A stretch of DNA of 62,930 nucleotides, the filler included. It is 11 parts of 11 records of this genome, joined end to end, with 100 filler letters (N's around TTAATTAATTAA, not from the genome) between each part and the next. Parts side by side here need not be neighbours in the genome. Positions count along the whole stretch, not along the records: positions 13,348 to 18,705 come from SRR15195285_415; 10 more parts are not named here. One strand, given 5' to 3'. A program made the translations under genes and the position numbers. Below are positions 1,429-51,089 of this stretch, in pieces. The stretch's first letter is position 1; each line of letters opens with the position of its first letter. Under the pieces are notes generated by a model. The model searched no databases and was not told the DNA's origin. It saw only the letters and a list, made by a program, of their open reading frames with translations.

Positions 1429-4400
1429 ATGTCGATCTACGGGGAGGCGAGCGATGGGCTCGAGGGTGGGCTGTCGGTAAGTGGGGGTGGAGGGCAGCGG
1501 GGGCGGGCTTTGGTTCGCTGAGTGCGCATGGTCTAACGCTGCGTCTCGCAGGCACCTGGGGGAAGCGGGCCGAAGGCCGAGGTCAAGAACCCGCTCAAGG
1601 GATGCACAGACCCGGTGATGGCATGGTACGGTGCCTTGCCGGCGGATCAGCAGCAGAAGGCGAAGGTCGGCGGCGGGTGCGTGCCCGCGCAACTGGCGCG
1701 CGCCCACGGTTGGTTTGCTCGCGCGCGCAGTGCCGCTGACTCTGTGTGGCCATTCTGCACCCGCTGTGAACAGCGTGGGCCTGGTCGTCCTGGTCGGCCT
1801 GCTGCTCTATTCACTCTCGGGCCCGAGCCCGTCCGACCTGGTCTGGGGCGTTGATCCCGGCAAGTACGAGGCCGGCAGCACTCCGATGTCATTCACCGAA
1901 GCCGAAGCGTACTGCGTAGGCAAGGGATACCATCTTGCCTCGATCCACAGCCAAGAGGAGCAGGCTATGGCTGCCACTGCCTGCGCCATGCAGGAGATCG
2001 GCACGCACTGGGGCGACACCGAGCGCCCGAACGGCTGCTGGATCGGCCTGCACGTTGGCGCGCAGGAAGGCGTGTTCGAGTGGACCGATCATTCCATGGT
2101 CGACTACCTAAACTTCTACTCCGGCGAGCCGAACCAGTGCTCTATGGCTGATCTGTGGGACCGGAACCACTGTGGCTCCGAAGGCGAAAAGTACGTCGAA
2201 CTGCAGTCCAACTGGGGCTTCGCCTGGAACGACAATGGCTTGGAAGGATCGCACACACACGACGTCGAGACCCAGGCGGCGCGACAGGCAGAAATGGACG
2301 CGAGCGGCGGCGGCACCGCCACCAACTCTGCCCGTGGCATGTACCCGCTGTGCCTGAAGGAAGAGACCACGGAAATCGCCCTTGAAGGCGGCATCGACCC
2401 GAACTCGGTGGTGGGGTCGTCGAGGGCCTCTACCACCTGGCGCCTGCCGAAACCATCTTGCCGCGCCTACGGCATGGATGGGCAGGTCCAGGAAGCCGTG
2501 AAAGACCAAAACACCGGAAAGTGGGACTGCGGCCCAGAGCCGGATGGCACCAAGCCGAACTTCATCCTGATGCCGTACACTTCCTCGGCCGTTCAGGCGG
2601 AAGATATGTGCAAGGCAAAGGGTTACGCGGGCCTGGCTTCGCTGCACTCGATCGCGGACGTCAGACACGCAAAGGAACTCTGCGGCAAGTTCGCGAACCT
2701 GCACAAGGTCATCAAGGGTCTGCCGCACTCGTGCTGGATCGGGCTGTCCGACAAGGAGCAGGAGGGCGGCTTTGCCTGGATGGACTCAACCGCAGTCGAG
2801 TACCTGAACTGGTCTCCGGGCGAGCCGAATGAATGGGGTGGCGAGGAGTCCGGCGAAGACTACGTCTCCATGCGCTACGACTACGCTGGCGGCGCCTGGA
2901 ACGATGCTAACGTGCTCGGCGAGGCCGGCCACGCTGCGATGGGTAGCAACGGCGGTCACACTATGGCACAGATTACGGGCTGCCACGGCTGCTACGGCCC
3001 GGCTGGGTATTACCCTCTGTGCGAGGAGAAGCGCCCGCACGCCAGCCAGAACGGGCCGTGGGAGTGGCAGACCCTCACCGGTGCGGAGTCAGGCCGGTTC
3101 AAGGTGCTCCCTAGAGCTCTTCCGCGGGCTCACGCCATGGCTGCATGCGCGGAGAACGGCATGCACGGGCTTGCTTCCATCCACAGCCGCTCCGAGCAGA
3201 TTCAAGCAGCCAAGGTGTGCCGCCAGGTCGCGTCTGTCGACGCAGAGCTGCAGCACGGCGTAGCCGAAGGCTGCTGGATCGGCCTCACGGATGAAGGTCT
3301 TGAAGGCACCTTCCGGTGGCAAGACAACTCGCCCACAAACTTCCTGAACTGGAACTCTGGCGAACCGAACGAATGCATTGGTTGCGGTGGCGAGGACGGT
3401 GTCGAGATCGACTACCGCTGGGGCAGCCGCGACGGCTACGAGTTCGGTGGTGGCTGGAATGATGCAAATGACTTCGGTCGAGCAGGATCTGCTTCTGACG
3501 GCCGCAATCTGCAGGCCACCCACGACACCTGCTGGGGCTGCTGGGGAGCCGTCGGATACTTCCCGATCTGCCAAACTGCGCTGCCGACAGCCGAGGGTCC
3601 GCCTGAATGGAGGACTCCCTCCAAGGCCGGCACATGCGTCGGCCCAACCGGCGCCACGCAGCCGATTCAGTTTCAGCCAGGATCCAACCAGTACTCCTGC
3701 CCAATGCAAGCTGGCTACCCACAACAGGCTCCACACCCGACCAACTGCGTGGACCACCAATACGCGCAGTACCGCTTCCTGATCGAGGCTGTCCGCGGTG
3801 AAGGCGCTGCGGAGGCTCCGGGCGCAGACAGCACACACGCAGCGAACTCCGTGCAGATCGCCGAGTTCAACTTCTACGGAGGACCTGGCAAACAGTCACC
3901 AATCTTCTGCCAGGCCAGCGCAGGATGTACAGTCACCAACCCGGGCGGTGACAACCCTCAGCGCTGCGCGGGAGAGATCCAATACAACCAGGACACGCAT
4001 CGGGAGGAGTGCTCGAGCGGCGAAGGGCTTGGTTCGGAGCTTCCGCCTATGGTTGTTGACCAAGACGCCAACACGAAATGGCTTGATTTCGGAATGGTTC
4101 GCGCGAGCGATTTAGCCGGTACCGGCCAGGGATCGCAGCTGATCTTTTCGGGCGGCGCCCTCGAGCGCTCAACCGTCGTCGGCTACTCGTTCGTCACAGC
4201 GAACGATGCGCCGGAGCGCGACCCGTCCTCGTGGAAATTCCAGGGCTGCCCCCATGCAGGCGTATGCACAGAGCAGCAGTGGGTCAACCTCGACATCCGT
4301 CGTTCCTACTCCGCTCCCAATACTCGGAACTTTGAAACGCACGAGTTCGCTGTCGGTTGCGCTGGTCAGCTTACGCAGACCACGTGCACCGGCGAAACGC

Positions 4401-5180
4401 AGGCTGCTGATCAAATGTGTACGCCGCTGCCGAACAGCGAGGGGGGCTATGGCTCGTGTGCGAGCACTGGCGCCACCTGCCAAGGTGGAGTAGGTGCAGA
4501 CCACCATCAGCGGGCGTTCGTTGCCTTGCCGAAGCCGGAATCCTGGGATTCGGCTCGCCTGCTGTGCAAGCGCAATTTCGGACCGCACTCTGACCTGGCG
4601 TCGATCCACAACCCAGCGCAGCAGGCCGCTGCCGTGTCGATGTGCACACAGCTCACCAGTGGCGAAACCCTGGAAGGAGGCGTCCCAAAGGGGTGCTGGA
4701 TTGGCCTCAACGACGTAGCGACCACGCGGCGTGACGGCTTGGCGGGAGAGTCCGTGTTTAGCTGGGTTGACAGGAGCGTAGTCGACTTCATCTCGTTCGC
4801 TCCAGGCGAGCCGAACAATGTTGGCGATAACGGCGAAGACGTGACCGAGATCGACTTGCGCCAAGGCCGCCATGATGGCGCCGCGGCCGGCGCATGGAAC
4901 GACAACAACGAGCTCGCTGAAGCGGGCAACAGTGACGACATGGCCGGCTGCTATGGCTGCTACGGTACTTTTGGCAACTACCCGCTGTGCGAAACGCACG
5001 CCCCGGCTGCCGGCAGCAATGAGCTTGGCCATGCCACCGACTCATCTATTACATGCCAGATTGACCAGACGCATGACTACGGCCAGGGCGGCATTGGGGG
5101 CAAGGGCTGCACGGGCACCTACGCCACGTGCTGCATGCCCCCTCCACCGCCGCCTCCGCCCGTGACCGGAGCAGGGCAGT
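1429..5180 (+). CDS. Type II membrane protein with four C-type lectin domains and an F5/8 (discoidin)-like domain; 3' truncated
   Basis: Spliced model: exon 1429-1476 (MSIYGEASDGLEGGLS), intron 1477-1551 (GTAAGT..CTAAC..CAG), exon 1552-1676, intron 1677-1773 (GTGCGT..CTGAC..CAG), then the long ORF frame starting with hydrophobic VGLVVLVGLLLYSL. Four repeats of LASIH..CWIGL..F.W.D..GEPN..WND..YP(L/I)C. The segment QIAEF..DQDANTKWLDF..TANDAPERDPSSW resembles F5/8-type domains. Confidence 0.85.
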
Positions 5181-5280
5181 NNNNNNNNNNNNNNNNNNNN
5201 NNNNNNNNNNNNNNNNNNNNNNNNTTAATTAATTAANNNNNNNNNNNNNNNNNNNNNNNNNNNNNNNNNNNNNNNNNNNN
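5181..5280. other. Artificial contig linker
   Basis: N44-TTAATTAATTAA-N44; the core has stops in all six frames. Confidence 0.98.
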
Positions 5281-5281
5281 T

Positions 5282-8200
5282 GTTTCTGCCGGCGGAATCT
5301 CTATTGAGGAGGGAGGAGTCAACATTGCTGCCGATGGTTTGAATGTCACCGGTGGCATCGTGTCGGCTGCTGATGGTAATGGCTTCGGCTTGAAAGTGCT
5401 ATCAGGACTAACTGCACTTTCGGGCGGCGTTGAAGTTTCTGGTGGCATGACTTTAAATGACACGGGAATTGAAGTAATCAGTGGTGCGTTGAACGTAACC
5501 GCCGGTGGCGCAGCCATCAGCGGTGGCCTCATCGTAGAGGATGGACTGACTTCTAGTGGGGGCGCTGAGATTTCTGGACTCATGACCGTACAAGACGGCA
5601 TCGACGTGAGGGGTGGTGGCATTCAAGTGCTCGGTGGCGGAATGCTGGGAATCAACCAGGACGCGCCGGAGTACCTGGTCGACATAAAAGCCAAGTCCAA
5701 CATTTCAGAGCCAGCGTACTTGGGTGGTAACTCGGTTAGCAATGATCTGACTGTTGGTGCTGGTGCTGTATACGTTGGTGTGACCGACAGCAGCTTCTAT
5801 ATAGAAGTGACGTCAACTGGCACTGCTGACAAATTCCGTTGGCGGAAGTGCGACTCTGTTGCTTCAGATTGTCAGAATAGGGCAGCAGAGTGTGTGGAGG
5901 ACTTCTCAGGTGACTTGTCGATGGAAGAGTCGGAAATGAATTTAGTTGACGGCGTGACGATCTCGTTTGGGGCTGCAACAGGACACAGCACTTCGGACAG
6001 TTGGTGCTTCTCAGTCAGTGTTATCAATCCGATCGGCGTGATGGATGCTTCGGGTACCCGTACGTTCACTGTCACTCAAGACGGCGCTATGTTCGCTGCC
6101 GGTGGAGCAACTGTTCGCATGGGTATGACCGTCACAGATGGCGGTCTGACAGTTGCGGAGGGTGGGATTCACGTGGATGCGGGTGGCATGCACATCGCAA
6201 GCGGTGGGTTGACAGTCGACGGCAGTGACGGAGTGGGGATGAATGTCACAGGCGGCATGGACATCAGTGGTGGGAGTGACTTCACTGGAGGTGTGACAGT
6301 GGGGGACACCGGTTTGACTGTCAGCGCCGGCGGGATTTCCGTGGAGAGCGGTGGGATTGACGTGCAGCTGGGTGGAGTCAACGTCAGTGGGGGTGTGGTT
6401 GCTGGCGGAGGGATAACTGTTTCGGAAGGTGGTCTCACTGTAAGTGGGGGTGCTGTTGTGGGGGGAGGCCTCACTGTGCAAAACTCCGGGGTGACGGTTG
6501 AAGAGGGAGGCCTAGAAATTGCAAGCGGCGGCATGACTGTCGGTGGCGGCATGCAAATAGAAGATGGAGGGTTGGATGTTGCAGGCGAGTCAGCATTGGT
6601 TGGCGGCGTCAACGTGGTTGGCGGTCTGAGGGTAGAAGACACTGGGCTTGAGGTAACCGACGGCTTGATAAACATTACGACTGGGCAGCTCGCTATCAAC
6701 GTGCCCAATCCTGAGTACATGATTGACGTGCAATCAACTTCAGAGATATTCGAAGTACGGTCCTTGCTAGCAGATGTGAGTGCCCTGACGACAGGAGGAA
6801 TCTATACCGGTTCAGACATTAGTGCATTGGTAGAGGTGGAGATCGAGGCAGCTCAGTCTGCTGATGGTGGCAGCTTCATGTGGCGCAAGTGCAAGTGGGA
6901 GGACGACGAAAGTGCAGGGTGCTCGGACGACACTGCATGGGCGACCAATGTTCAATTCACTGCGGATACATCTATTGAACTTTTCGATGGTGTGACAATC
7001 AGCCTTGCAGGGGGGCGCATTGCAGGTGAGCAGTGGAACTTCAAGATTGCAGCGATGAACCCGTTGCGATTCGAAAATGCAGCGGGGGATCTCACGTTCT
7101 CAGTTGGCCAAGATGGTTCTGTTTTTGCCGCTGGCGGTGCCCAAGTGGAGCAAGGTCTGACAATTCTCGACTCTGGATTGACAATCACCTCCGGGGGACT
7201 GCAGGTTCTGGCCAGTTGCGTTGGCACGACCAACTCAGATCTTGACAACGATGGCCAGATGGACGATTGCGCAGTAGTATTTGCAGCAGCGGGAGCTGGG
7301 ATCGATGCCAACTGCCCAGATGAATGCACGTACAGTGCCCCTGGCGTGGAAGTCGACGGCAGTGTAGTCGTGCACACTGGTGGTGTCATCGTGGAGGAAG
7401 GGGCAATCGTTGTCGAGAATGGCGGACTGGACATTGCTGGGGCTGCCACTATTGGTGGGGGCATGTCAGTCACGGGCACTCTCGAAGTCATGAGCGGAGG
7501 TACCACAATTCACGGTGGTGGACTGTCCATCTTGGCTGACTGTACTGGAACGGGTAACGCTGGAGAAGACTGCTCGGCTGTATTCCTTGCCGCTGAACAT
7601 AAAATTGCGTCAAGCTGCCCTGCTGGCTGCTTGTTTAGCGACAATGGACTCGAGTTGGTGACGGGTGACTTGACTGTCACGTCCGGCGGAGCAATCGTGC
7701 AGGGAGATGTCAGTGTGTCAAGCAAACTGTCTGTTGCAGGGACCGCAACTTTTGACGGGGGCGTTGAGGTGGTAAACTCTGACTTGGTCGTGGCTGAGGG
7801 AGGAATTACAGTAGAGGATGGAGGCGTGACCATCAACGGCGGCCTGGACGTCCTCGACACTGGCATGATAGTTTCTGGGGGATTGACACTGAACGATGTC
7901 GGTTCCTGCCGGGCGATCGATCCGTCTACTGAAATGCACGTGGCAACTTGTGGAAACGTGGCTGCGGAAGAATCGGCCTGCAACAGCTTTACTATGGAGG
8001 TAAACGGTGTGCAGACGGCGGTGTGCGTTTTCAGAAAGGGTCTCATTGTGGAGAGCGGTGGCGTCACTGTTGATGCAGATGGGATGACTGTGGCAGGCGG
8101 CGTCCACGTTCTCGACACTGGTGTCACTGTCTCTGGCGGGAAGCTGGATGCTCGTGATGGGGCGATTGTTCAGGGTGGCCTGCAGGTGCAAAACGGAGGA

Positions 8201-9922
8201 TCTACTGAAGCTTGCGAAGCCAGCGGAATACAATCTCCCACTGCATCACAGATTCAGGCATGCCTCGACGCTGACCTGTCTGGCACTGAAACTGAGAGCG
8301 AAGCGGCTTGCCAGCAAGCCGGTTCTTTCTGCGTTTACACTCCGTGGGCTGCTGCAGTACAGGTTGCTACTGGAGGCCTTGACGTGCAGCAGGATGGTGC
8401 AAGGATTTCCGGCGGTGTGACGGTAGTTGATACTGGACTGACAGTGGAATCTGGTGGCGTCAACATTGCGGCTGGTGGACTTAATGTCACTGGTGGTATG
8501 ACAATCAACGACGTCGGCCTGATCATCTCTGAAGGAGGCATCGAAGTCGACGACGGCATGACCGTGAAGGGTGGCATGTTCATCGAAGATACCGGGCTCA
8601 CGATCACTTCCGGCGGTGCCCAGATTGACGAAGGAGGCTTGGTAGTCAGCGGCGGTATCAATGTGACCGATGCAGGGCTGACTGTGGATGCTGGCGGTGC
8701 TACAGTTTTTGGTGGTGCAGAAGTTAGTGGCGGGATCAAAGTCGCAGACGGCGGTCTGACTGTCACAGAGGGAGGCTTGGCGATTGATGGAGGTGAGCTT
8801 GGCATCAATGTCGACGTTCCTGAGTTCATGGTGGATATCCAGGCGACCATGACGTTGACCGTAAACCAGCGGTCCAACCCTGGGGAGGAAACACTTGCAG
8901 TTAGCGGTGCGTACACTGGACACACAGGCAAGAACGTGGAGGATGCCACTACGTTCAGGGTTGAGATTGAGCAGAAATCTCCTAACGGACCGTCTACCGC
9001 GACACTGTCTTACTTCAAATGGAAAAAGTGTATCGGTGGTGTGTGTGAATCCTCCCCTCCTTGGAATCAGGAGGCTGTGCCAGTCACAGGTGCACCGCAG
9101 CATTTGATGGAGAACGTCTTCGTTGAATTTGGGCGTATTAACGATCACACTGGAGACGAGTTCTGGTTGATTGATGCCGTGCCGACGAATCCTTTCGGTG
9201 TGCGCGATGCGACTGGTGCGATCACCCTGTCTGTGGGTCAAGATGGATATTTGCAAGGCTTTGGCGGTGCTTTTATCGCCGGTGGCCTAACGTCTGAAGA
9301 TCGCGTAACGATCGAAAGCGGAGGCCTGACGGTCGAGGCCGACGGTGCTACAATATCTGGCGGCGTCACCATTACCGACACCGGACTGATTGTGGAGAGC
9401 GGTGGCATGGACATAGATGGTGGGCTCACAGTCAATGGTGGACTGACTGTCGAAAGTGGAAGGCGGGCCTCATGCACCGGCGTGGCAGGAGGCGTGGACT
9501 GTGCATCAGCGTTCGAAGCAGCCGCAAGCACATCCTCCGACAATTGCCCTACAGGCTGCATGTACACCCCGTCGTCGGTAGGTCTCAGTGTTGCTGACTC
9601 AATGGAAATCTCGGGTGGTGTAGAGATCAGAGGTGGGCTGGCTGTGGAGGACGGACTTACTGTCGAGACTGGAGTCTTGGCGGTGCTGAACGGCGAGACT
9701 GTCATCTCAGACGGCCTGACTGTGCGCGCAGGCTTCACGGTGGACGGTGGCGACGCAACTTTCAGTGGTGGCGTGACGGTTGGGTTGGGGTCTTGCAACG
9801 CAGTTCACTCCGTCGATGCTGCACTGTGCAATGCTGTGGCGATCACAGAAGACCACACAGCCAGCAGCCTGGCGTGCGAGGCTGTGGCGAAGTGCTCAGC
9901 CTCCTCCAATCCAGACATGCAG
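5282..9922 (+). CDS. Giant Gly-rich beta-repeat (fibre/adhesin-like) protein with inserted globular and Cys-rich modules; partial at both ends
   Basis: Reading frame is open across the whole contig (in frame from 5282, VSAGGISIEEGG..). Dozens of GG(L/M/V)x(V/I)xxGG repeats, three copies of a ~150-aa insert and six Cys modules. Confidence 0.85.
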
Positions 9923-10022
9923 NNNNNNNNNNNNNNNNNNNNNNNNNNNNNNNNNNNNNNNNNNNNTTAATTAATTAANNNNNNNNNNNNNNNNNNNNNN
10001 NNNNNNNNNNNNNNNNNNNNNN
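9923..10022. other. Artificial contig linker
   Basis: N44-TTAATTAATTAA-N44. Confidence 0.98.
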
Positions 10023-11317: not shown

Positions 11318-13083
11318 TCAATACGTGGCCCCTTCTTCTACATCATCACTAGTGGCTGTCGGATACGCGAGCCTGACAAATGCAACATCGTGCTTGCCAA
11401 TTGTTGCGTTAAAGTTGCCCGTGGCTGGTGGGAGGTCCGACTGGTGAATGATGTCGCGTACATGCATGCTTTGCCGTGGAGATAGCCCAAGCTCTGTCCA
11501 GGAAACGGACAATGTCGTCTCCGTGGATCCACGATTTAGCAGCAGCACCGCGATGTCTGCTCCTGAGCCATGTCCCAATGTCCGGGCGAACACCTGTGCA
11601 GTGATATCTAGGGAGCGTGGTCCGCCCGGCGGCGGTACTGTTGCACCAGCGACCAAACACATCGGCACCGGCGTAGTAAAATCAGATGCTGCGGCACTAG
11701 GTGCTAAGGATATGGTCCCCGTCTGATGATTTAGTGTGAAATTCTGGGCCGTGCTGCCGTCACACTTGGTCAACGAGACTACCCCTCGCCCCTTATTGAG
11801 CCGAGCTTCTGCGGTGAGACAAGTACCAGCATTCACGTTTGTGATACTGTGGGCGCCGACCTTCCACTGTTGATTCTTGTACCCACACAACACTGTATTG
11901 TTTGGGTGACACTCGTGGACCTGCACAGGGGTACCATTAGCAATGTTGCACTCATACGCATCCAGGCACCCGAATGCTGAGCCACCAGCGCGTAGCGACT
12001 GATCAGCCTCGTTCTGCCACGGCAGCAACCCTACCGCTGCTGTGTGGTTGCATGGCACCAACGAAAGAGTACCATCCGGGGCATTCGTTGCAGGCCTCGC
12101 AGCCTGCGAGATTAGCACCGGGGGCTGAGCCCCTTTTGCCTGGTTGACAGCAACAATTTCAGAGTTGAGGATGAGCTCCAGACATTCCGGGTGGTCACGG
12201 CGCAGAGTTCGTAGATCCACACCCAAAATCAAGGGGCTTGCGAGGATCGCCCACACAGCATAGTGTGCTCGGTACTCCGCGAGTGTCATTCCACCTCCGT
12301 GTGACATCGCGCCTTTGCCATAGTTGCACACCTGGAGCATGTCCGCATCGTTCCACGAGCCTGGCACAGAGTAGTCAAGGCGTGACATCTGGAGCATCGA
12401 ATCTATGTCACCGATGATCCCGCCTTTCGCAGGACCGAGATACCAAGAATCGAAAGTGTTTGTGTACTCAATCAACAGAGCGTTGGCCAAGCTATGACGC
12501 TCTGTCGTAGTCCACTCCGCAGGTGTGCAATGAATGAAACCAGTGATCCCGAGCTCCTTTTGAGCCGTCCATTCTGCCGCTGTGCCCAGAGCTGGGGCGA
12601 CTGTGTCAGGACAAATCGAGTAATAGATTGATCGGTTGGTTGCGTTCAGTGCGTCACCTAGAGCCTTAAAGGCAGCGTATTGCGCGCCTGGCTGGATGCT
12701 CACTTTGCCTCCCGCAGTCGGGCCGCTCGTTGGCCCGCAGAAATCGACTTTCAAGTAGTCTACCTGCCAATCGTGCGCGTAAGTATCAGCGTCTATCTGG
12801 TAGTAACCCTGCGAACCTGGGCCGGTGCCACATTCGTGGGCTGAGATATCAGTGTAGACGCCTAAGAGTAGACCTTTGGCATGCAGGCGATCAGCGATAT
12901 GCCGCATTCCGTTGGGGAATTTTGCAGGATCGACGACAGGCTTGCTCGACGCTGGATCTCGAGCGCGCAGAATGGCACCGGCATCGATATTGATGTATCG
13001 ATAGCCAAGCTTGCTGAGGCCGGTGGCGATGAGGGCATCGGCAGTCTCCAGTATGTTCTTCTCATTGACCGCGTTTCCGAAAC
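11318..13083 (-). CDS. GH27 alpha-galactosidase-like protein with an inserted ricin-B (CBM13) lectin domain; 5' exon missing
   Basis: Exon starts after a CAG acceptor at 13084-13086 (FGNAVNEKNILETADALIATGL..YINIDAG..KFPNGMRH). Motifs GVYTD, YLKVDFC, PGSWNDADML, HYAVWAILASPLILG, ricin QQW/QNF repeats and a C-terminal beta-sandwich. Confidence 0.9.
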
Positions 13084-13148: not shown

Positions 13149-13247
13149 GCGCGAGAGGAGAGAGGGAAAGAGAGAGGGACAGAGAGGGAGAGAGGAAGTG
13201 GGAGGGAGGGAGGGAGAGAGCGTGCGTGCGTGCGTGCGTGCGCGCGC
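13149..13247. repeat. Microsatellites (GA/GGA)n and (GCGT)n at contig end
   Basis: Seen directly; typical of an assembly break. Confidence 0.85.
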
Positions 13248-13347
13248 NNNNNNNNNNNNNNNNNNNNNNNNNNNNNNNNNNNNNNNNNNNNTTAATTAAT
13301 TAANNNNNNNNNNNNNNNNNNNNNNNNNNNNNNNNNNNNNNNNNNNN
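13248..13347. other. Artificial contig linker
   Basis: N44-TTAATTAATTAA-N44. Confidence 0.98.
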
Positions 13348-13492
13348 GATCCCGTCCCAGCTGAGCGGTCGGTGGCTGTGGCGGCTGGCTGCTCTGCGGT
13401 GGCTGGCTGCGCTCCTGCGTGGGGTCGCGAGTGGACAGCAGCTCAGGCTGAGACTGTCCCGGCAGGAGCACCGCATCCTCGGCGACCACCAT
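13348..13492 (-). CDS. Possible N-terminus of an unknown protein, truncated
   Basis: ATG follows a CG-rich promoter-like tract; P/Q-rich MVVAEDAVLLPGQSQP.. runs into the gap. Confidence 0.35.
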
Positions 13493-14163: not shown

Positions 14164-17100
14164 TCACATTTGCACAATTGCCCAAATGACCACAAGCAGT
14201 ATGGACGTGGTGACAGTTTGCGCGTACGATGTCTTCTCTGGCACCCCACCGCCCTGGCCCTGCGCCTCGGGATCGTCAGCAAGTGGCTCATAGTTGCACC
14301 CCGGTGGGCAAGTGCCGTTTATAATTGAGCAAGCCGGCGTGTGCGCAGCTGTTGCCAAGACTTCGTCGCACCCTATGGGACACGCAGGCTGCAGCGACGT
14401 GTGCGTGCTGCCAGCTACCCAGTCACTCAAGCTATATCTGGAGTCGATGTAGTCAGTCATCTCAACTGCGTCAAAGAAGATTGTTCTCTCGTCGCGAATT
14501 TGAGTATACATGCCCATCTTGAAAAAACTGAAGTCGGTGTCGTCTCTGTCGTTGAGGTTCAGTCCAGTCGCTTCGAACACACTTGTGCCGTCGATGTAGA
14601 TATTAATGTACCCCACAGAGCTATCCTGTGATGGTACCATGTGAATTTTCAGCGTGTGCCACGTGTCGGGGCTAAGGGTAGCAATTTGGTGATCGTCGTG
14701 TCGGTCGCCGGATAAGCCATAATGTTGGTAAGGGCTCTGCACATACAAGTGGTAATCTCCCTCGTTGCTGAGCCTTAACTCGAAGTTCGGATCAGAGCCT
14801 GGATATTGCTTGTGCTGGAATATGATCGTGGAATATCGCGTGACCTGATCCCAGGCGTCTGATGGGAGGTACACACTGGCGCTGATATAGACATCCCTGT
14901 CAGGAAAGGCGCGCGTGTTCCAGTCTCTGTTGCCCAGTTCTACTCGTTTGGTGTAGCTCTTCGGTGTGGATGATCCGTAATCGGAGCTATCGCCGTGAAA
15001 GCGAAGAATGTAGTCGCCTTCGGGAGCAACCACGTTATAGTCACTCGCTAAGACGCTGGTAATACTATGGATATTGCTCGCTACAAAGCGGGTTTGGACC
15101 CCATCGATATTCTCCCAGGTGCGGCTGTTGTCGTCGTACGAATACGTCAACCAGAATGGCGACGGATTGTTGCCGGCAACAGTACCATCTTCACCACCAG
15201 AAAATATGCGCCAGTTGTCACCGCTGATACTCGCGGATGATATCGTTCCTGGCCTACCGTCCAAGTTGCCGTACGTGACTTCAGCGCGAATGGTTTGGCC
15301 GCTCACTCCATGATCACTCACGACTAGTGTCGATGTTGTAGCTCCTGCAATTTCAGCATTATTCGCGTACCATTGGTACCTAGTCCCTTCGTTGCCATAA
15401 TCTGATAGCTGGGAAGCGTCGAGCGCAACTGTACCGGGTGCTGCGCTTGAGCCTGTCACATCCCGATTCAAACTTCCAAGCACCCGGAAAATGGCGCCAG
15501 CGTTGCCAAATTCACACGCAGTACCGTCGGTGCTGCTGCCCGTGCACGCTGCCTCGACTGCAGCGACTTCAGTCGCTATGCCTGTGCACGTGGCCTGTGC
15601 TGGAGCTGGAGCCGGAGCTAGAGCGTTGTCGACCGAGTCGCAGTCATCTGCCGACCCTTCTGCACTGTCCGTTGTTACCACAAGCTCTGGTGGGTTAGTG
15701 TTGTCGTCTCGGCGGCTCTCGCACTCAAACTTCTGCCAATTGACGCTCGAGTCCTCTACCCAGAAGGTCAACGCTGTGGCACCGTCGCTCACCGTCTCGG
15801 CAGTGAAAGCGCTCACGTCCCACTCGAACCATTGACCCGTGGCAGTCACATCCACGCTGGTAATTGCGTCGCCCTGAGTCGGGCCGTTGTTCCATGTGAC
15901 TGTCGTCTCGTCCCAGTCACCACTAGCCCTGTGCACTGTGAAAGCAGCGCCGCTGTCTTTCACATACGTTGTGTGCAGTCTGAGCTTAGCGGTTCTGACC
16001 TCTGCATCAGCGTAAGACTCCAGGCTGAACCGCAACACGCCGACGATTTGGGCGTCAGGTTTGCCATAAACCTCCACGTCCCGCCAGTTAGCGTTGTTGT
16101 CGGGCTCTGCTTCGAGTAGTGAAGCATCGTCCGTCGGGTTAACTGTGGTTGTGGAGGAGCACTCAGCTTCTCCACTTCCCGGATCAGTAGGAGGTGGTGG
16201 CGGTGGTGACGGCGGTGGTGACGGCGGTGGTGGCGGCGGTGGCGGCTCATCAGTACCTGGCATCAGTGTAGTTGACACTGGGCAAGCTGGCGAGGGCTCC
16301 GCCGCGGCCTCACTCGGGATAGCCACTGAGGCATGCTGGACGACAAACTCCGGCCTGTTCGAGTTCGACTCCCTGACACTGTTGACTTCGATCCTCTCGT
16401 AGTTGTTGTCGTCGCCCTGTATCCAGAACGTGATTGAGCTGAGATCGCCCCCCGCCTGGAGCCTAGCGTTGAGATACTCGCTGACGTCGAATTCTACCCA
16501 GCCAGTGCTAGAGATGGATACCGTTTGCAGTCTCTCCTGGGGATCCGGAGCGTTGTTCCAAGTCACTGAGTTTTCGTCCCACGATTCTGCGCCCACAGTG
16601 CTCCAAATTGCGAAGTTCCACGGACCTCCATCTTTCAGAGTGACGACGTACACCCGGAGCTCAGCGCTACGAATTTCGGCCGCGCCCACTAGGGAAGAGG
16701 CGTCCACTTTGAAGATGCCTGCAATCCAGACTTGAGTCGGTTTGGCGTAAATCTCAACTTTCCCCCAGTTTGCGTTGTTGTTCGGATTACCTTCGAGAAG
16801 CGACGCGTCGTCAGTAGGCCGAAGTGTGGCCGTGCTCAGCACGGTGCCAACGGCAATGCGAATGTGAGCAGACTCTCCCGTCTTCGAATTGGTGTCCGTA
16901 GCAACCACATAGATGGTGTATCCGTAATTTCCCTCGGGTGTCCAGCTGATTGAGTATGGTGAAGACGTCGCCGTGCCGAGGAGAACGGCGTCACTGTTTT
17001 CGTTCTGAATCGCGTAAAACTTCACGTCAACAATCGCGCCGTCGCCTTGCGTAGTGGATGCAGCGAGATTCACTGAGCCACCGGCAACGTCGTCGCCCGT

Positions 17101-18333
17101 TGAGTGGGAAGTGATGTTTGCTGTTGGTGGAGCGTTCCCGCTCCGAACACTCACCACGGTGGACGAGGCGACATTCCCGTCTTGATCTGTGACCCGTGCA
17201 GAGAACTCGTGGAGCCCATCTGTAGGCGGATTGAATGTCGCCGAGTACGGGTATGATGCGTCCTCGGCGACGAGACATCCGCCTTGAACGTAAAAGCTCA
17301 CTTTCGCGATCGAGCCAGGCCCGCCGATCCCGTCGGGATCGACGGCAGTCGCGCTCAACATAATTTCCTGCGAGTTGGTGTTCTCAGCGGTGATTGAAAC
17401 AGATGGCTTGTCCTGATGCTCAGCCACCCAGTCGGCCTCACTGCCGAACCCAATGCTGGCCAAGTCGGTAGTCATACCAACGGCGTCGAAGTAGATCACT
17501 CGCTCGTCACGAATCTCGGTGTACATGCCAAACTTCACGTACCCTCCTCCACTGCTCCTGACGCCTAGCATGTTCCTTCCAAATTCCTGGAACACCAGCT
17601 CGCCGTTAAGGTATACCCGCACGATACCATCGGAGCCAGTGGCCTTGCGATAGTAAATCTTCACGTCGTTCCATTGGTCTGGTTGTATAGTGGCGATCTC
17701 GCGGCCCTCATCGCCCTGCTCCCATAGGCCTTCGCCCCCCCTGTAGTAGAGCTTATAGTCCCCAAGGTTGCTGACACGAAGTGCTCCGTGTGGGTCGGAG
17801 GTCATCTTCCACTGCGTGATGACGGTGGAGTATTTGGAGACCTGATCCCAGTTCTCGGAGGGCAGGTAGAATGACGCGGTGTAGTACACGTCGTCGCCGT
17901 TCAAGTACGTGTAGCCGATGGAGCCTATCTCCGCTCTGTTCGAGGCGTAGCTTCCGCTAGGGACATAATCGTTGAGGCCCCGCTCGCGCCCGTCGGCGTA
18001 TACCTTGAGCACGCCCTGGCCCTTGCGCGCCCAGTCCAGCCCGGTGAGCACCTCGTGACCGTGCAGCGACGAGATGCCGAGGTATGTGTCGCAGTTTCTC
18101 GGGGAGTAGCCTCCGACCCCGCACTTGCATTCGGTGATCTCGTTGCCAGAGTTGCTGCACCCATCAACATTGGACTGGATGTTGATGCTGAAGCTGGGCT
18201 CCAGCGCAGGGCTCAGCGCAGGGCTGCCGTCGGGAAAGCCACTCTCCCAGTCTAGCTCGAAAGTAGGATTCTGCCCGCGCACTGACGCCAGCAGCGCCGA
18301 GGCCACGAGCGCGGACCGCGCCATGCCCAGCAT
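14164..18333 (-). CDS. Secreted, probably GPI-anchored protein: lyase-like jelly roll, 2 Ig, 2 DNRLRE/CBM96-like, Cys modules and a second lyase-like domain
   Basis: Intronless 1389 aa with a signal peptide. Two domains with RxE..Y..S.YLP..Q(W/H)K..(Y/F).K.GMY (PF14099-like). Two bacterial-type Ig repeats (V.FY..PYS), two PTDDASL.E..SA.LR domains, a poly-Pro linker and a hydrophobic C-terminus SILLVVIWAIVQM. Confidence 0.8.
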   Translation of the reverse strand: MLGMARSALVASALLASVRGQNPTFELDWESGFPDGSPALSPALEPSFSINIQSNVDGCSNSGNEITECKCGVGGYSPRNCDTYLGISSLHGHEVLTGLDWARKGQGVLKVYADGRERGLNDYVPSGSYASNRAEIGSIGYTYLNGDDVYYTASFYLPSENWDQVSKYSTVITQWKMTSDPHGALRVSNLGDYKLYYRGGEGLWEQGDEGREIATIQPDQWNDVKIYYRKATGSDGIVRVYLNGELVFQEFGRNMLGVRSSGGGYVKFGMYTEIRDERVIYFDAVGMTTDLASIGFGSEADWVAEHQDKPSVSITAENTNSQEIMLSATAVDPDGIGGPGSIAKVSFYVQGGCLVAEDASYPYSATFNPPTDGLHEFSARVTDQDGNVASSTVVSVRSGNAPPTANITSHSTGDDVAGGSVNLAASTTQGDGAIVDVKFYAIQNENSDAVLLGTATSSPYSISWTPEGNYGYTIYVVATDTNSKTGESAHIRIAVGTVLSTATLRPTDDASLLEGNPNNNANWGKVEIYAKPTQVWIAGIFKVDASSLVGAAEIRSAELRVYVVTLKDGGPWNFAIWSTVGAESWDENSVTWNNAPDPQERLQTVSISSTGWVEFDVSEYLNARLQAGGDLSSITFWIQGDDNNYERIEVNSVRESNSNRPEFVVQHASVAIPSEAAAEPSPACPVSTTLMPGTDEPPPPPPPPSPPPSPPPPPPTDPGSGEAECSSTTTVNPTDDASLLEAEPDNNANWRDVEVYGKPDAQIVGVLRFSLESYADAEVRTAKLRLHTTYVKDSGAAFTVHRASGDWDETTVTWNNGPTQGDAITSVDVTATGQWFEWDVSAFTAETVSDGATALTFWVEDSSVNWQKFECESRRDDNTNPPELVVTTDSAEGSADDCDSVDNALAPAPAPAQATCTGIATEVAAVEAACTGSSTDGTACEFGNAGAIFRVLGSLNRDVTGSSAAPGTVALDASQLSDYGNEGTRYQWYANNAEIAGATTSTLVVSDHGVSGQTIRAEVTYGNLDGRPGTISSASISGDNWRIFSGGEDGTVAGNNPSPFWLTYSYDDNSRTWENIDGVQTRFVASNIHSITSVLASDYNVVAPEGDYILRFHGDSSDYGSSTPKSYTKRVELGNRDWNTRAFPDRDVYISASVYLPSDAWDQVTRYSTIIFQHKQYPGSDPNFELRLSNEGDYHLYVQSPYQHYGLSGDRHDDHQIATLSPDTWHTLKIHMVPSQDSSVGYINIYIDGTSVFEATGLNLNDRDDTDFSFFKMGMYTQIRDERTIFFDAVEMTDYIDSRYSLSDWVAGSTHTSLQPACPIGCDEVLATAAHTPACSIINGTCPPGCNYEPLADDPEAQGQGGGVPEKTSYAQTVTTSILLVVIWAIVQM

Positions 18334-18705: not shown

Positions 18706-18805
18706 NNNNNNNNNNNNNNNNNNNNNNNNNNNNNNNNNNNNNNNNNNNNTTAATTAATTAANNNNNNNNNNNNNNNNNNNNNNNNNNNNNNNNNNNNNNN
18801 NNNNN
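18706..18805. other. Artificial contig linker
   Basis: N44-TTAATTAATTAA-N44. Confidence 0.98.
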
Positions 18806-48734: not shown

Positions 48735-51089
48735 ATGATGCTCCTGACCCCCCTCCTCTGCGCAATAGTTACGGCAGTGGCTGACCCGAGCAGAAAGGGG
48801 ATGTGGGTCTGGGGCAAGCACTCCCCGCTCGCCAACGCCTCAGCTTCGGAGGCATTTTTCGCGTGGTCCGCGAAGGAGGCCAATAGTGACACCGGCCCGG
48901 TAGGCACTATTTTTGTCGAGGACGAAGGTCTCGTGAAGGACGCGGCGCACTCGGCCGCGTTCGAAACACTTCTCGTGACGGCAGCGACGGCAGGCATTCG
49001 TGTGGCCGCGTTGTACGGGTGGAATGCAGGCGAAGGGCCATTTCCCGCAGCGTCAGTTCTCAAATTTGTGGACGGCGTCGTGGCCCTGCCCACTACCAAT
49101 TCCGCCCTTGCCGGCATATCCTTTGACATTGAGCCCCGGGACCATCCGGACCCCACGTCGTTCCAGCAGTACGCTGACTTGTTGCCGAAGGTCCGCGCCA
49201 AGCTGGACGCTGCAAACCAGCACCGGGCACAGCTAGCGCTGCCAAAGCTGACGCTGTCCATCGCTGGATCATGGGGTTACGAGTCTGCAAACGTCAGCTG
49301 CGGTAGCGTTGGCCCCGCTGTCTCCCTGCTGGACTGCGCAGTCACCTACGTAGACACCTATATTTTGATGAACTACCGCAACAACGCCTACGGCTGCTCT
49401 TGCAAACCGCCCATCAATGCCACCGCTCCAGGGCACAATGCTCCTTGGATGGAGTGCCCGAGTGATGGCTGCCCAATCGCAGGCAACCAAACAGGGTGCA
49501 GAGAGCACTATACGGCTGAGAAACTGGCAGGACACCTCGGCGACGGTATGATCGGTAAAGCTGTATCCGCCGCGGCGGCGGTGAAAGCTAGCAGCTACAA
49601 GGCCTCGCGACTGTCGCTTGGTGTCGAGTTGTCGTGCTTTCCACCGTCAGATGCTGCCGACGGAAAATACCAGTACAAGCTTAGCTTTTGTGGCACGTCA
49701 ACAAAGTACCTAGCTGCTCAAATGAAGGAGACTGAACTCGGGCTGAAAGAGGCCAGGCTGTGGGACGGCGTGGTGAGCGAGACGATTCCGTGGTCGATCG
49801 AGGACTATCACGCGCTCGTTGCGCTGCAGCAGCAGAGTCCGGATCCGGCAGCGGTGGCGGTGGTAGTCGGAAGTAATGTGGAATGGGGGGTGGACGTGTT
49901 TGTCCCTGGCATGACAAGCGCACAAGGCGATAAGTATCAGTGTATCCGCATCCCCAGTGTGGTACATGATCAGCACACTGGTAACCTGCTGGCGTTTGCT
50001 GAGTGCCGCCACACTGTCGGTGACGGCTGCCTTCCCAGTGGTGTCAAGAGCGGACCCGGAGGCACTGACCTATGCTCCCGCGTTAGCTCTGATCAAGGCG
50101 CGACATGGGGTCCACTAACCACTCTAGCGAAGAACTCTGGGCAGCCAACAGCAACGTGAGTGCAGTAGTGATCCCTGTGCTACCTGTCTGTCCTACCCAC
50201 GAAGTGCTTTCGGCTTACGCAGCGCATGGTGGCTGCTCTGTGCAGCTACATGCCTACGAAGAAGGCGACACTCCTCGAATTCAACCAAAAGTCAGGCAAG
50301 GGCTGTCTCGCTGGAAAGGGTGGCTCCTGCTGTCCTGTATGGCAGATGCTCTCGTCGGATGGTGGGTTGTCGTGGAGTAATCGGACTTCGGTCGTGCCGA
50401 CGGGTGTGGTCGCCTGGCCGGCTCGAGTTGGGCCCGGCATTGGTATCCAGCTTCGGCCAAACAATCCCCACAAGCCTGGCAGGCTGCTGAACATTGGCTG
50501 GCACTTTGCAAATGGCTCATATGCGTACAGCTTTGACTCCATCTACTTCTCCGACGATGGTGCCAAAAGCTGGCAGCAGCCCAAGCAGACTAGGCAGCTA
50601 AATACACCGTGTGATGAAGCCCAGATGGTGGAGCTTCCTGATGGAAGCGTCCTGGCTATGATGCGGCCCACCATCACGAGCTTCAAAGATTGCCCAACGT
50701 GCAGACAGCTGAGCATCAGCACTGATGGAGGGGACACCTGGGGTTGGGGTGGCGTACAAGGTGCTGTGCATCCAGAGCCACAGTTGAATGGCGCGATCTG
50801 CATGGGATCCATCTTTGGCGATGCCGACGCCACCTACGCATCGTTTCCGAACAGTTCGGACGTGAGCAACGGCGGCAAGGTCGGGCGCAAAAACGGGGTA
50901 ATTCGCGTTTCCAGAGACAATGCAAAGACGTGGAGCGACCTTATCGGGTTTGGGACCGAGACAGAGTTCGCATATAGTTGCTTAACTGATGTGAAGAACC
51001 ATAGCCGACTGGGGATCTTGTATGAGACGGGCGTTGCGAATTGTGTCGGGCCCTCTTGCCGCACTGTCTTTGCCACATTACCACGCTGA
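48735..51089 (+). CDS. Secreted two-domain protein: TIM-barrel glycosidase-like domain + GH33 sialidase
   Basis: Signal peptide; N-domain KGMWVW..GISFDIEP..YILMNYR..LGVE; intron 50156-50245; IRIPS motif, five Asp-boxes (SSDQGATW, SSDGGLSW, SDDGAKSW, STDGGDTW, SRDNAKTW), DEAQMVELPDG..MR, GRKN, AYSCL, LYE. Confidence 0.85.

Follow-up and report, generated by a model that had tools for sequence, protein, structure and literature searches.

LRRNT and LRRCT are cysteine-rich caps that lie beside a domain, and VWF A1 is a domain closed by a single disulfide loop. In the integrin beta chain the polypeptide passes through PSI and hybrid domains into beta-A, which itself sits within the hybrid domain, while the disulfide C13-C435 links PSI to EGF1 across more than 400 residues (PMC12383024). 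Here we describe a presumably secreted and surface-tethered polysaccharide lyase (P0001) encoded on a contig at 13348..18705 of a 62,930-base window, by which we mean the whole stretch of DNA analysed. The second lyase unit of this protein is preceded by two opening motifs and followed by two closing motifs of a compact four-cysteine module, which a fibre protein (P0002) of the same window keeps whole. Our leading reading, held at about even odds, is that the two flanks meet at the base of the enclosed domains, here termed the cargo, and are joined there by at least one long-range disulfide.

Cysteine motifs on both sides of the second lyase unit

The region 14290..15593 on the minus strand encodes amino acids (aa) 914-1348 of P0001. 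Cysteines 916, 930 and 940 lie on its N side and cysteines 1318, 1322, 1335, 1342 and 1346 on its C side, with 377 residues from C940 to C1318:

15547..15594, minus strand: opener 1, aa 914-929; A-T-C916-T-G, then the predicted helix TEVAAVEAA
15508..15546, minus strand: opener 2, aa 930-942; C930-T-G, nine residues, then C940-E-F
15229..15495, minus strand: Ig-like (immunoglobulin-like) domain, aa 947-1035; no Pfam match
14410..15228, minus strand: lyase domain 2, aa 1036-1308; Pfam PF14099 at 1102-1290
14362..14388, minus strand: closer 1, aa 1316-1324; P-A-C1318-P-I-G-C1322-D-E, with no aromatic residue after it
14329..14361, minus strand: inter-closer segment, aa 1325-1335; VLATAAHTPA, then the extra cysteine C1335
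14290..14328, minus strand: closer 2, aa 1336-1348; SIINGT-C1342-P-P-G-C1346-N-Y, a complete canonical closer

Both N-side openers have the form A-x-C-T-G (A-T-C916-T-G and A-A-C930-T-G), and the motifs are strictly sorted: openers all precede the cargo and closers all follow it. A preliminary description of this DNA had proposed two opening halves, about 370 aa containing an Ig-like and a second lyase domain, and two closing halves; the coordinates, the PF14099 match and the structure model described below all bear this out. The order opener-opener-cargo-closer-closer is what split modules predict, whereas intact caps would read opener-closer, cargo, opener-closer. The flank cysteines number three and five, odd on both sides, so that at least one bond must cross the cargo if the eight pair among themselves.

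The flank motifs are non-random and far above chance. The composition of the lyase predicts 0.12 CTG and 0.001 CPxGC motifs, against two of each observed, and a set of 160 further proteins, most of them related to the cargo and totalling 165,916 aa, contains seven CTG and no CPxGC. The six-frame translation of the window contains five CPxGC motifs, four of them in the open reading frames (ORFs) of the lyase and the fibre protein; the fifth has a stop codon at x.

The motifs are conserved in close paralogues. P0003 is 93% identical to P0001, P0020 84% (N-truncated) and the fragment P0083 62%, and all share C-side cysteine motifs. The five C-side cysteines and their spacing are kept in P0003 and P0020, and the three N-side cysteines in P0003; P0020, being truncated, allows comparison of its C side only. 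P0083 has closer 1 and a cysteine equivalent to C1335, and no second closer.

The contiguous module of the fibre protein

The fibre protein, on the contig at 5281..9922, is built of Gly-rich “GGLTV”-type repeats and three large repeat units that all share a conserved F-x-W-[RK]-K-C stretch. It contains six contiguous four-cysteine modules, three canonical and three variant, confirming the compact CTG...CPxGC modules reported for it in the preliminary description:

5282-9922, plus strand: fibre protein P0002; ORF open at both ends
7211..7333, plus strand: canonical module 1, aa 644-684; cysteine spacing 16, 14, 3
7535..7636, plus strand: canonical module 2, aa 752-785; cysteine spacing 9, 14, 3
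7901..8032, plus strand: variant module, aa 874-917; cysteine spacing 13, 9, 14
8207..8338, plus strand: variant module, aa 976-1019; cysteine spacing 15, 15, 6
9467..9565, plus strand: canonical module 3, aa 1396-1428; cysteine spacing 8, 14, 3
9788..9901, plus strand: variant module, aa 1503-1540; cysteine spacing 10, 15, 5

From these six copies we defined the module by its opener, A-x-C-[TV]-G; a second cysteine 8-16 residues on, followed by a helix with x-x-x-F-x-A-A; its closer, C-P-x-G-C-x-[YF]; and the contiguity of its four cysteines within about 45 aa. An AlphaFold2 model of module 2, calculated with the other five modules as the alignment, has a mean predicted local distance difference test score (pLDDT) of 79, with a core of 85-87. 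In this model one strand carries C1, a helix starts at C2, a strand directly follows C4, and the first and last strands pair. The contiguous module thus seems to fold as a single small unit that brings its two ends together, so that opener and closer would share a single fold when contiguous.

The module is an undescribed extracellular building block, whichever topology proves right for the lyase, because it has no match in Pfam, NCBIfam or PDB. Five isolated module and flank segments matched no Pfam family at E <= 10; a profile of the six-module alignment found nothing in PDB at E <= 10, nor did Foldseek with the module model. For the whole fibre protein Pfam returned only a sub-threshold DUF5649 match and NCBIfam nothing, and fibre residues 630-800 had no homologue at E <= 0.001 among proteins of 850-2708 aa. 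The best ESM Atlas score with module 3 was 0.79, below the level that counts as more than a lead, and the literature found on the motif or the lyase family does not describe the module.

Likeness of the flanks to the module

By sequence comparison the flanks are related to the compact fibre module, a likeness on which the preliminary description had staked its proposal and which tblastn, ungapped alignment and profile tests all detect. In a tblastn search of the six-frame window, each flank has fibre module 3 as its best non-self match (E 0.016 and 0.021), and module-related sequence is present on both sides of the inserted cargo. At the DNA level, flank-coding and fibre sequences share only matches of 9-16 nt (E >= 0.85).

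Profile tests used a hidden Markov model (HMM) built from the three canonical fibre modules only. When opener 1 and closer 2 are spliced together (aa 912-929 plus 1334-1352), this outer pair scores 19.2 bits, reached by none of 300 full and none of 300 cysteine-fixed shuffles; when the splice points are left free its score is 18.1 bits, equalled by 0/100 full and 3/100 motif-keeping shuffles. The inner pair scores 5.4 bits at a fixed splice (3/300 full and 14/300 cysteine-fixed shuffles reach this). Taken as whole modules, the intact N flank (aa 910-946) scores -1.1 bits and the intact C flank 6.5 bits. Opener 1 has no canonical second cysteine, and its helix lies at model residues 16-27 in AlphaFold2. 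The nine-residue spacing of C930 and C940 in opener 2 is that of C1 and C2 in fibre module 2; the alignment score of opener 2, 33, is equalled by 21/500 shuffles. No helix follows C940-E-F, and the cargo begins seven residues on.

Two further arrangements gained no support: C898-C916-C930-C940 as one complete module, which the profiles do not favour, and the N and C flanks as mutual duplicates, whose score of 21 is reached by 243/500 shuffles.

The cargo and its origin

The cargo is a bacterial-type cassette of an Ig-like domain and a PF14099 lyase. The PF14099 match scores 146.5 bits against a gathering score of 29.9, and the Ig-like stretch matches 5-29 times within giant proteins, indicating a repeat-type domain. 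We modelled aa 905-1360 by AlphaFold2 with a 40-row alignment of P0003 and relatives under ~700 aa, hand-picked from 167 proteins. The model has a mean pLDDT of 81 and a predicted template modelling score (pTM) of 0.78, with the Ig-like domain and then a beta-jelly roll mostly above 90. Near-invariant cargo columns include R1130, Q1173, K1175, Y1276 and R1283 (numbered as model position + 904).

Beyond the close paralogues the relatives are bacterial-looking, with lipoprotein-type N termini (P0004 at 66% identity, P0005 at 59%, many at 32-54%); under their NCBI names, two belong to Akkermansiaceae and Synechococcus. Among bacterial and archaeal genomes, a scan recovered full-length cassettes from metagenome-assembled genomes (MAGs) of Marinoscillum (L001, 48%) and Flavobacteriales (L002, 47%). 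The order CBM96, Ig, lyase already exists in bacteria, for example in P0022. In the Marinoscillum MAG (L001:451-1887), near-identical Asp-rich repeats (D-x-D-x-D-G..C) with two cysteines each stand on both sides of the cassette; we take these to be thrombospondin type 3-like calcium-binding repeats.

The cysteine flanks are absent from the bacterial relatives. Across 18 full-length cassette matches in 17 other proteins, the three-plus-five flanks occur in P0003 only; 13 matches are free of cysteine for 45 aa to each side, and the other four carry one to four unrelated cysteines. Because the flank cysteines are confined to P0003 among these matches, the flanks are lineage-specific additions around the cassette.

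The window consists of about 11 short contigs joined by N44-TTAATTAATTAA-N44 spacers (at 5181-5280, 9923-10022, 13248-13347, 18706-18805 and six more sites). These joins are artificial, so genes adjacent in the window are not physically linked. Other contigs encode eukaryote-typical proteins, namely a kinesin, a tubulin-tyrosine ligase, a myotubularin/RabGAP/PH protein, Rtf2 and a DEAD-box helicase. The GC content at third codon positions (GC3) of the lyase gene is 0.65 overall and 0.58 in the cargo, within the 0.55-0.75 range of the eukaryotic genes of the window. Gene company and matching GC3 together indicate that the lyase gene belongs to a eukaryote, most likely a protist. Given the bacterial-looking relatives outside the close paralogues, this eukaryotic setting suggests an old horizontal transfer of the cassette from marine bacteria to the protist.

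Do the flanks pair across the cargo?

We infer that the flanks pair, and likewise the pattern and function of that pairing. Both flank segments derive from the four-cysteine module kept whole in the fibre protein, and one or more disulfides would span the ~400 residues between the N and C segments. The resulting composite clasp would sit just above a flexible stalk and C-terminal anchor, where it would make the junction rigid and retain the enzyme if the linker were cut. A strict self-nested double module is a special case of this clasp, in which inner C930 and C940 would bond with C1318 and C1322, and outer C916 with C1335, C1342 or C1346; we consider it somewhat unlikely. The module within a module of the preliminary description therefore survives only in part: the profile test supports the outer pair, and the inner pair shows no likeness beyond its motifs, since at a free splice it scores 11.0 bits but 82/100 motif-keeping shuffles do as well. 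Unlikely, in our view, is the fullest version, in which two lineage-specific copies of the module are nested around the horizontally acquired cassette, three or four disulfides knot the ends of the enzyme above a glycosylphosphatidylinositol (GPI) or membrane stalk, and the whole represents a protist way to domesticate foreign enzymes.

Several observations weigh against pairing. The main rival is a pair of independent caps, each flank being a degenerate module-length copy that folds alone and serves as a rigid spacer beside the cargo. The N cap would take C898 as its fourth cysteine, and the C cap would use C1318, C1342, C1346 and either C1322 or C1335, leaving one C-side cysteine unpaired or bonded to another molecule close to the membrane. 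This explanation holds a substantial minority of our belief. Aligned without gaps to the whole of module 3 under BLOSUM62, each flank scores 48, a value reached for the N flank by 1/500 full and 1/500 cysteine-fixed shuffles and for the C flank by 0/500 and 2/500. The alignments are colinear, placing C916 and C1318 on C1, C940 and C1342 on C3, and C1346 on C4; the C1-to-C3 spacing is 23 in both flanks and the C1318-C1346 span is 29 aa, as from C1 to C4 in the module. With each flank ungapped against a whole module, two separate module-length caps remain live. F942, two residues past C940, resembles the aromatic residue after C4 in the fibre modules, and the 6.5 bits of the intact C cluster are reached by 0/300 full and 7/300 cysteine-fixed shuffles. 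Self-contained cysteine repeats on both sides of the homologous Marinoscillum cassette demonstrate that independent small modules flanking this cassette do occur. The split modules themselves are imperfect: the outer one, lacking a canonical second cysteine, must borrow C1335; the inner pair appears to resemble the module at the level of the CTG and CPxGC motifs only; and openers and closers, 377 aa apart, depart from the contiguity of four cysteines within about 45 aa. Openers 1 and 2 repeat each other locally in tandem, with a unit of 14 aa (score 42 at offset 14, attained by 3/1000 shuffles), and insertion of a module into a module is thus not required. Both flanks also fall below pLDDT 50 in the AlphaFold2 model (residues 1-20, 22-41, 410-438 and 442-456), so that the check proposed in the preliminary description, modelling of the C-terminal part, predicts no packing of one flank on the other. 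Caps, however, leave the sorting of motifs unexplained, since closers are missing from the N flank and openers from the C flank, and they would put the second A-x-C-T-G and second CPxGC down to chance, at 0.12 and 0.001 expected per protein. Taken intact with C898, the N cluster scores -4.3 bits with the three-module HMM (122/300 shuffles) and 0.0 bits with a six-module HMM (54/300), the N and C flanks are not significantly alike (score 21, 243/500 shuffles), and, counted from the list of cysteines, caps would leave three unpaired in P0001 (353, 684 and 1335) against one in the cross-paired scheme.

Very unlikely, we think, is that the flanks are unfolded linkers whose cysteines form intermolecular bonds, oligomerising the enzyme or cross-linking it to the cell covering, and whose likeness to the fibre module is that of shared low-complexity linker material. 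The low pLDDT of both flanks would fit, as would their Ala/Pro-rich and acidic context, the further Cys-rich insert in the P0020 stalk and the odd cysteine totals (17 in P0001, 11 in P0003). Yet the cysteine spacing from C1318 to C1346 is strict and free of insertions or deletions in three of the four aligned paralogues (the P0083 fragment lacks the second closer), AlphaFold2 folds the contiguous module confidently, and the likeness of the outer splice exceeds its cysteines (0/300 cysteine-fixed shuffles). The same odd totals bear on pairing across the cargo: they leave one cysteine unpaired in any case, and C898 could complete the N side, which makes the parity of the flanks indecisive. With flanks in only three or four near-identical paralogues, covariation offers no evidence for pairing either. 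A complex prediction for the flanks alone (model residues 5-46 against 404-452) scored 0.02 against a mark of 0.34 in a run without controls and speaks neither for nor against binding.

Architecture of the lyase protein and its surroundings

P0001 begins with a signal-peptide-like stretch (aa 1-20), and after the second CBM96 copy it runs through the N flank, Ig-like domain, second PF14099 lyase, C flank, an acidic/Gly stalk and a hydrophobic end. Its remaining features are:

14164..18333, minus strand: whole lyase ORF, P0001, 1389 aa, from ORF translation
aa 102-285: PF14099 lyase domain 1, from Pfam
aa ~310-470: two Ig/Big_7 domains
aa 501-666: CBM96 copy 1
16186-16248, minus strand: poly-Pro linker, aa 696-716
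aa 728-888: CBM96 copy 2
15640..15642, minus strand: C898, a lineage-specific cysteine 17 residues ahead of C916
14167..14289, minus strand: acidic/Gly stalk and C-terminal hydrophobic end, aa 1349-1389; hydrophobic at ~1374-1389

NCBIfam adds nothing to this protein beyond a DNRLRE/CBM96 domain and a sub-threshold OmpL47-type match (aa 361-396). The poly-Pro linker serves as a joint for shuffling. P0003 is ~93-95% identical to P0001 from CBM96 copy 2 through the C terminus; its N-terminal part, ahead of a longer Pro-rich linker, differs.

The membrane anchor of the preliminary description is a tentative reading. A hydrophobic C-terminal end is present, but it measures only 12-15 residues with no tail beyond, and judged by its sequence it would suit GPI attachment no less well than a role as a transmembrane helix. 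The stalk between closer 2 and this end differs in length among paralogues. P0003 has an added (E-P/A) spacer in its stalk (aa ~945-962), and the P0020 stalk carries an extra Pro/Thr-rich stretch and a six-cysteine cluster (aa 361-385). The suggestion that the module and stalk are a general display system found no support in these data: the C-terminal 90 aa matched only the paralogues P0003 and P0020 among longer proteins, the motifs occur in only two ORFs of the window, and no other cargo with this stalk was found.

Other lineage-specific cysteines lie at domain boundaries (15640-15642, 15721-15723, 16159-16161 and 16282-16284, minus strand). C684 and C725 stand on either side of the poly-Pro linker, and C725, C871 and C898 bracket CBM96 copy 2; there are no cysteines at these places in CBM96 copy 1 or in the bacterial CBM96 sequences looked at. 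A cluster of four (C59, C69, C71 and C81; 18091-18159, minus strand, aa 59-81) near the N end of lyase domain 1 has a pattern unlike the module.

Elsewhere in the window, 11318-12907 (minus strand), on another contig, encodes a GH27 alpha-galactosidase with a ricin-B lectin domain, whose ORF begins at position 80 of the Melibiase_2 profile, so that its N-terminal part is missing or lies elsewhere. Two likely secreted, glycan-related proteins are encoded at 1631-5179 and 50226-51089 (both plus strand), one with three C-type lectin stretches and one a BNR-repeat protein, presumably sialidase-like; the cysteine module was not seen in either. The contig end at 13150-13247 consists of a (GA/GGA)n purine-rich tract and then a (GTGC)n microsatellite.

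Comparison with known systems

If the halves pair, the lyase would be one of few examples outside animals in which a large insert splits a small disulfide domain that clamps around it, and would show a eukaryote refitting a bacterial enzyme cassette for the oxidising cell surface. A module of this kind nested in itself would, to our knowledge, be the first. Should the flanks instead be independent caps, they would be ordinary lineage-specific Cys-rich spacers.

The enzyme itself has solved relatives of the beta-jelly-roll type: PL20 glucuronan lyase 2ZZJ, TtX122 of Teredinibacter turnerae (8Q2A, 8Q28 and 8Q29) and PL7 alginate lyases. 2ZZJ is matched by sequence (E 6e-4), and Foldseek returns 8Q2A (E 2e-9), 2ZZJ (E 1.4e-8), Cip1 and PL7 entries. 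These structures differ from the cargo in sequence (12-20% identity) and, as far as the listings show, have no Cys-rich flanks. Closer to it, at 33-66% full-length identity, are the bacterial cassettes of Ig-like and heparin lyase I/PF14099 domains in giant surface proteins, such as P0004, P0005, P0015 (NCBI “heparin lyase I family protein”, Akkermansiaceae), P0017 (Synechococcus sp. TAK9802) and L001 of the Marinoscillum MAG. Outside the lineage, none of the matched bacterial cassettes has opener or closer flanks, and the lyase gene differs from them also in its eukaryotic gene neighbours, poly-Pro linker and C-terminal hydrophobic end.

In the placing of short cysteine motifs directly before and after an extracellular domain, which they cap or clamp, the flanks recall LRRNT/LRRCT and VWF A1. 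The leucine-rich repeat caps are two different self-contained motifs, however, and VWF A1 is clamped by one disulfide with no module involved, whereas the lyase flanks belong to one module family, sorted into opening and closing types. On present sequence evidence we regard the flanks as a candidate variant of disulfide-bracketed domain insertion, in which the halves may join across the enzyme.

The nearest known principle for the proposed clasp, by analogy, is that of integrin beta, where a disulfide connects a small Cys-rich domain at the N terminus with a point more than 400 residues downstream, with nested domains between (PMC12383024). The two have no relation in sequence or fold, the module having no PDB match. 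The integrin nesting is known from structures, whereas nesting in the lyase is proposed from motifs alone; and where the integrin chain nests one domain in another, in the lyase the same small module would nest in itself.

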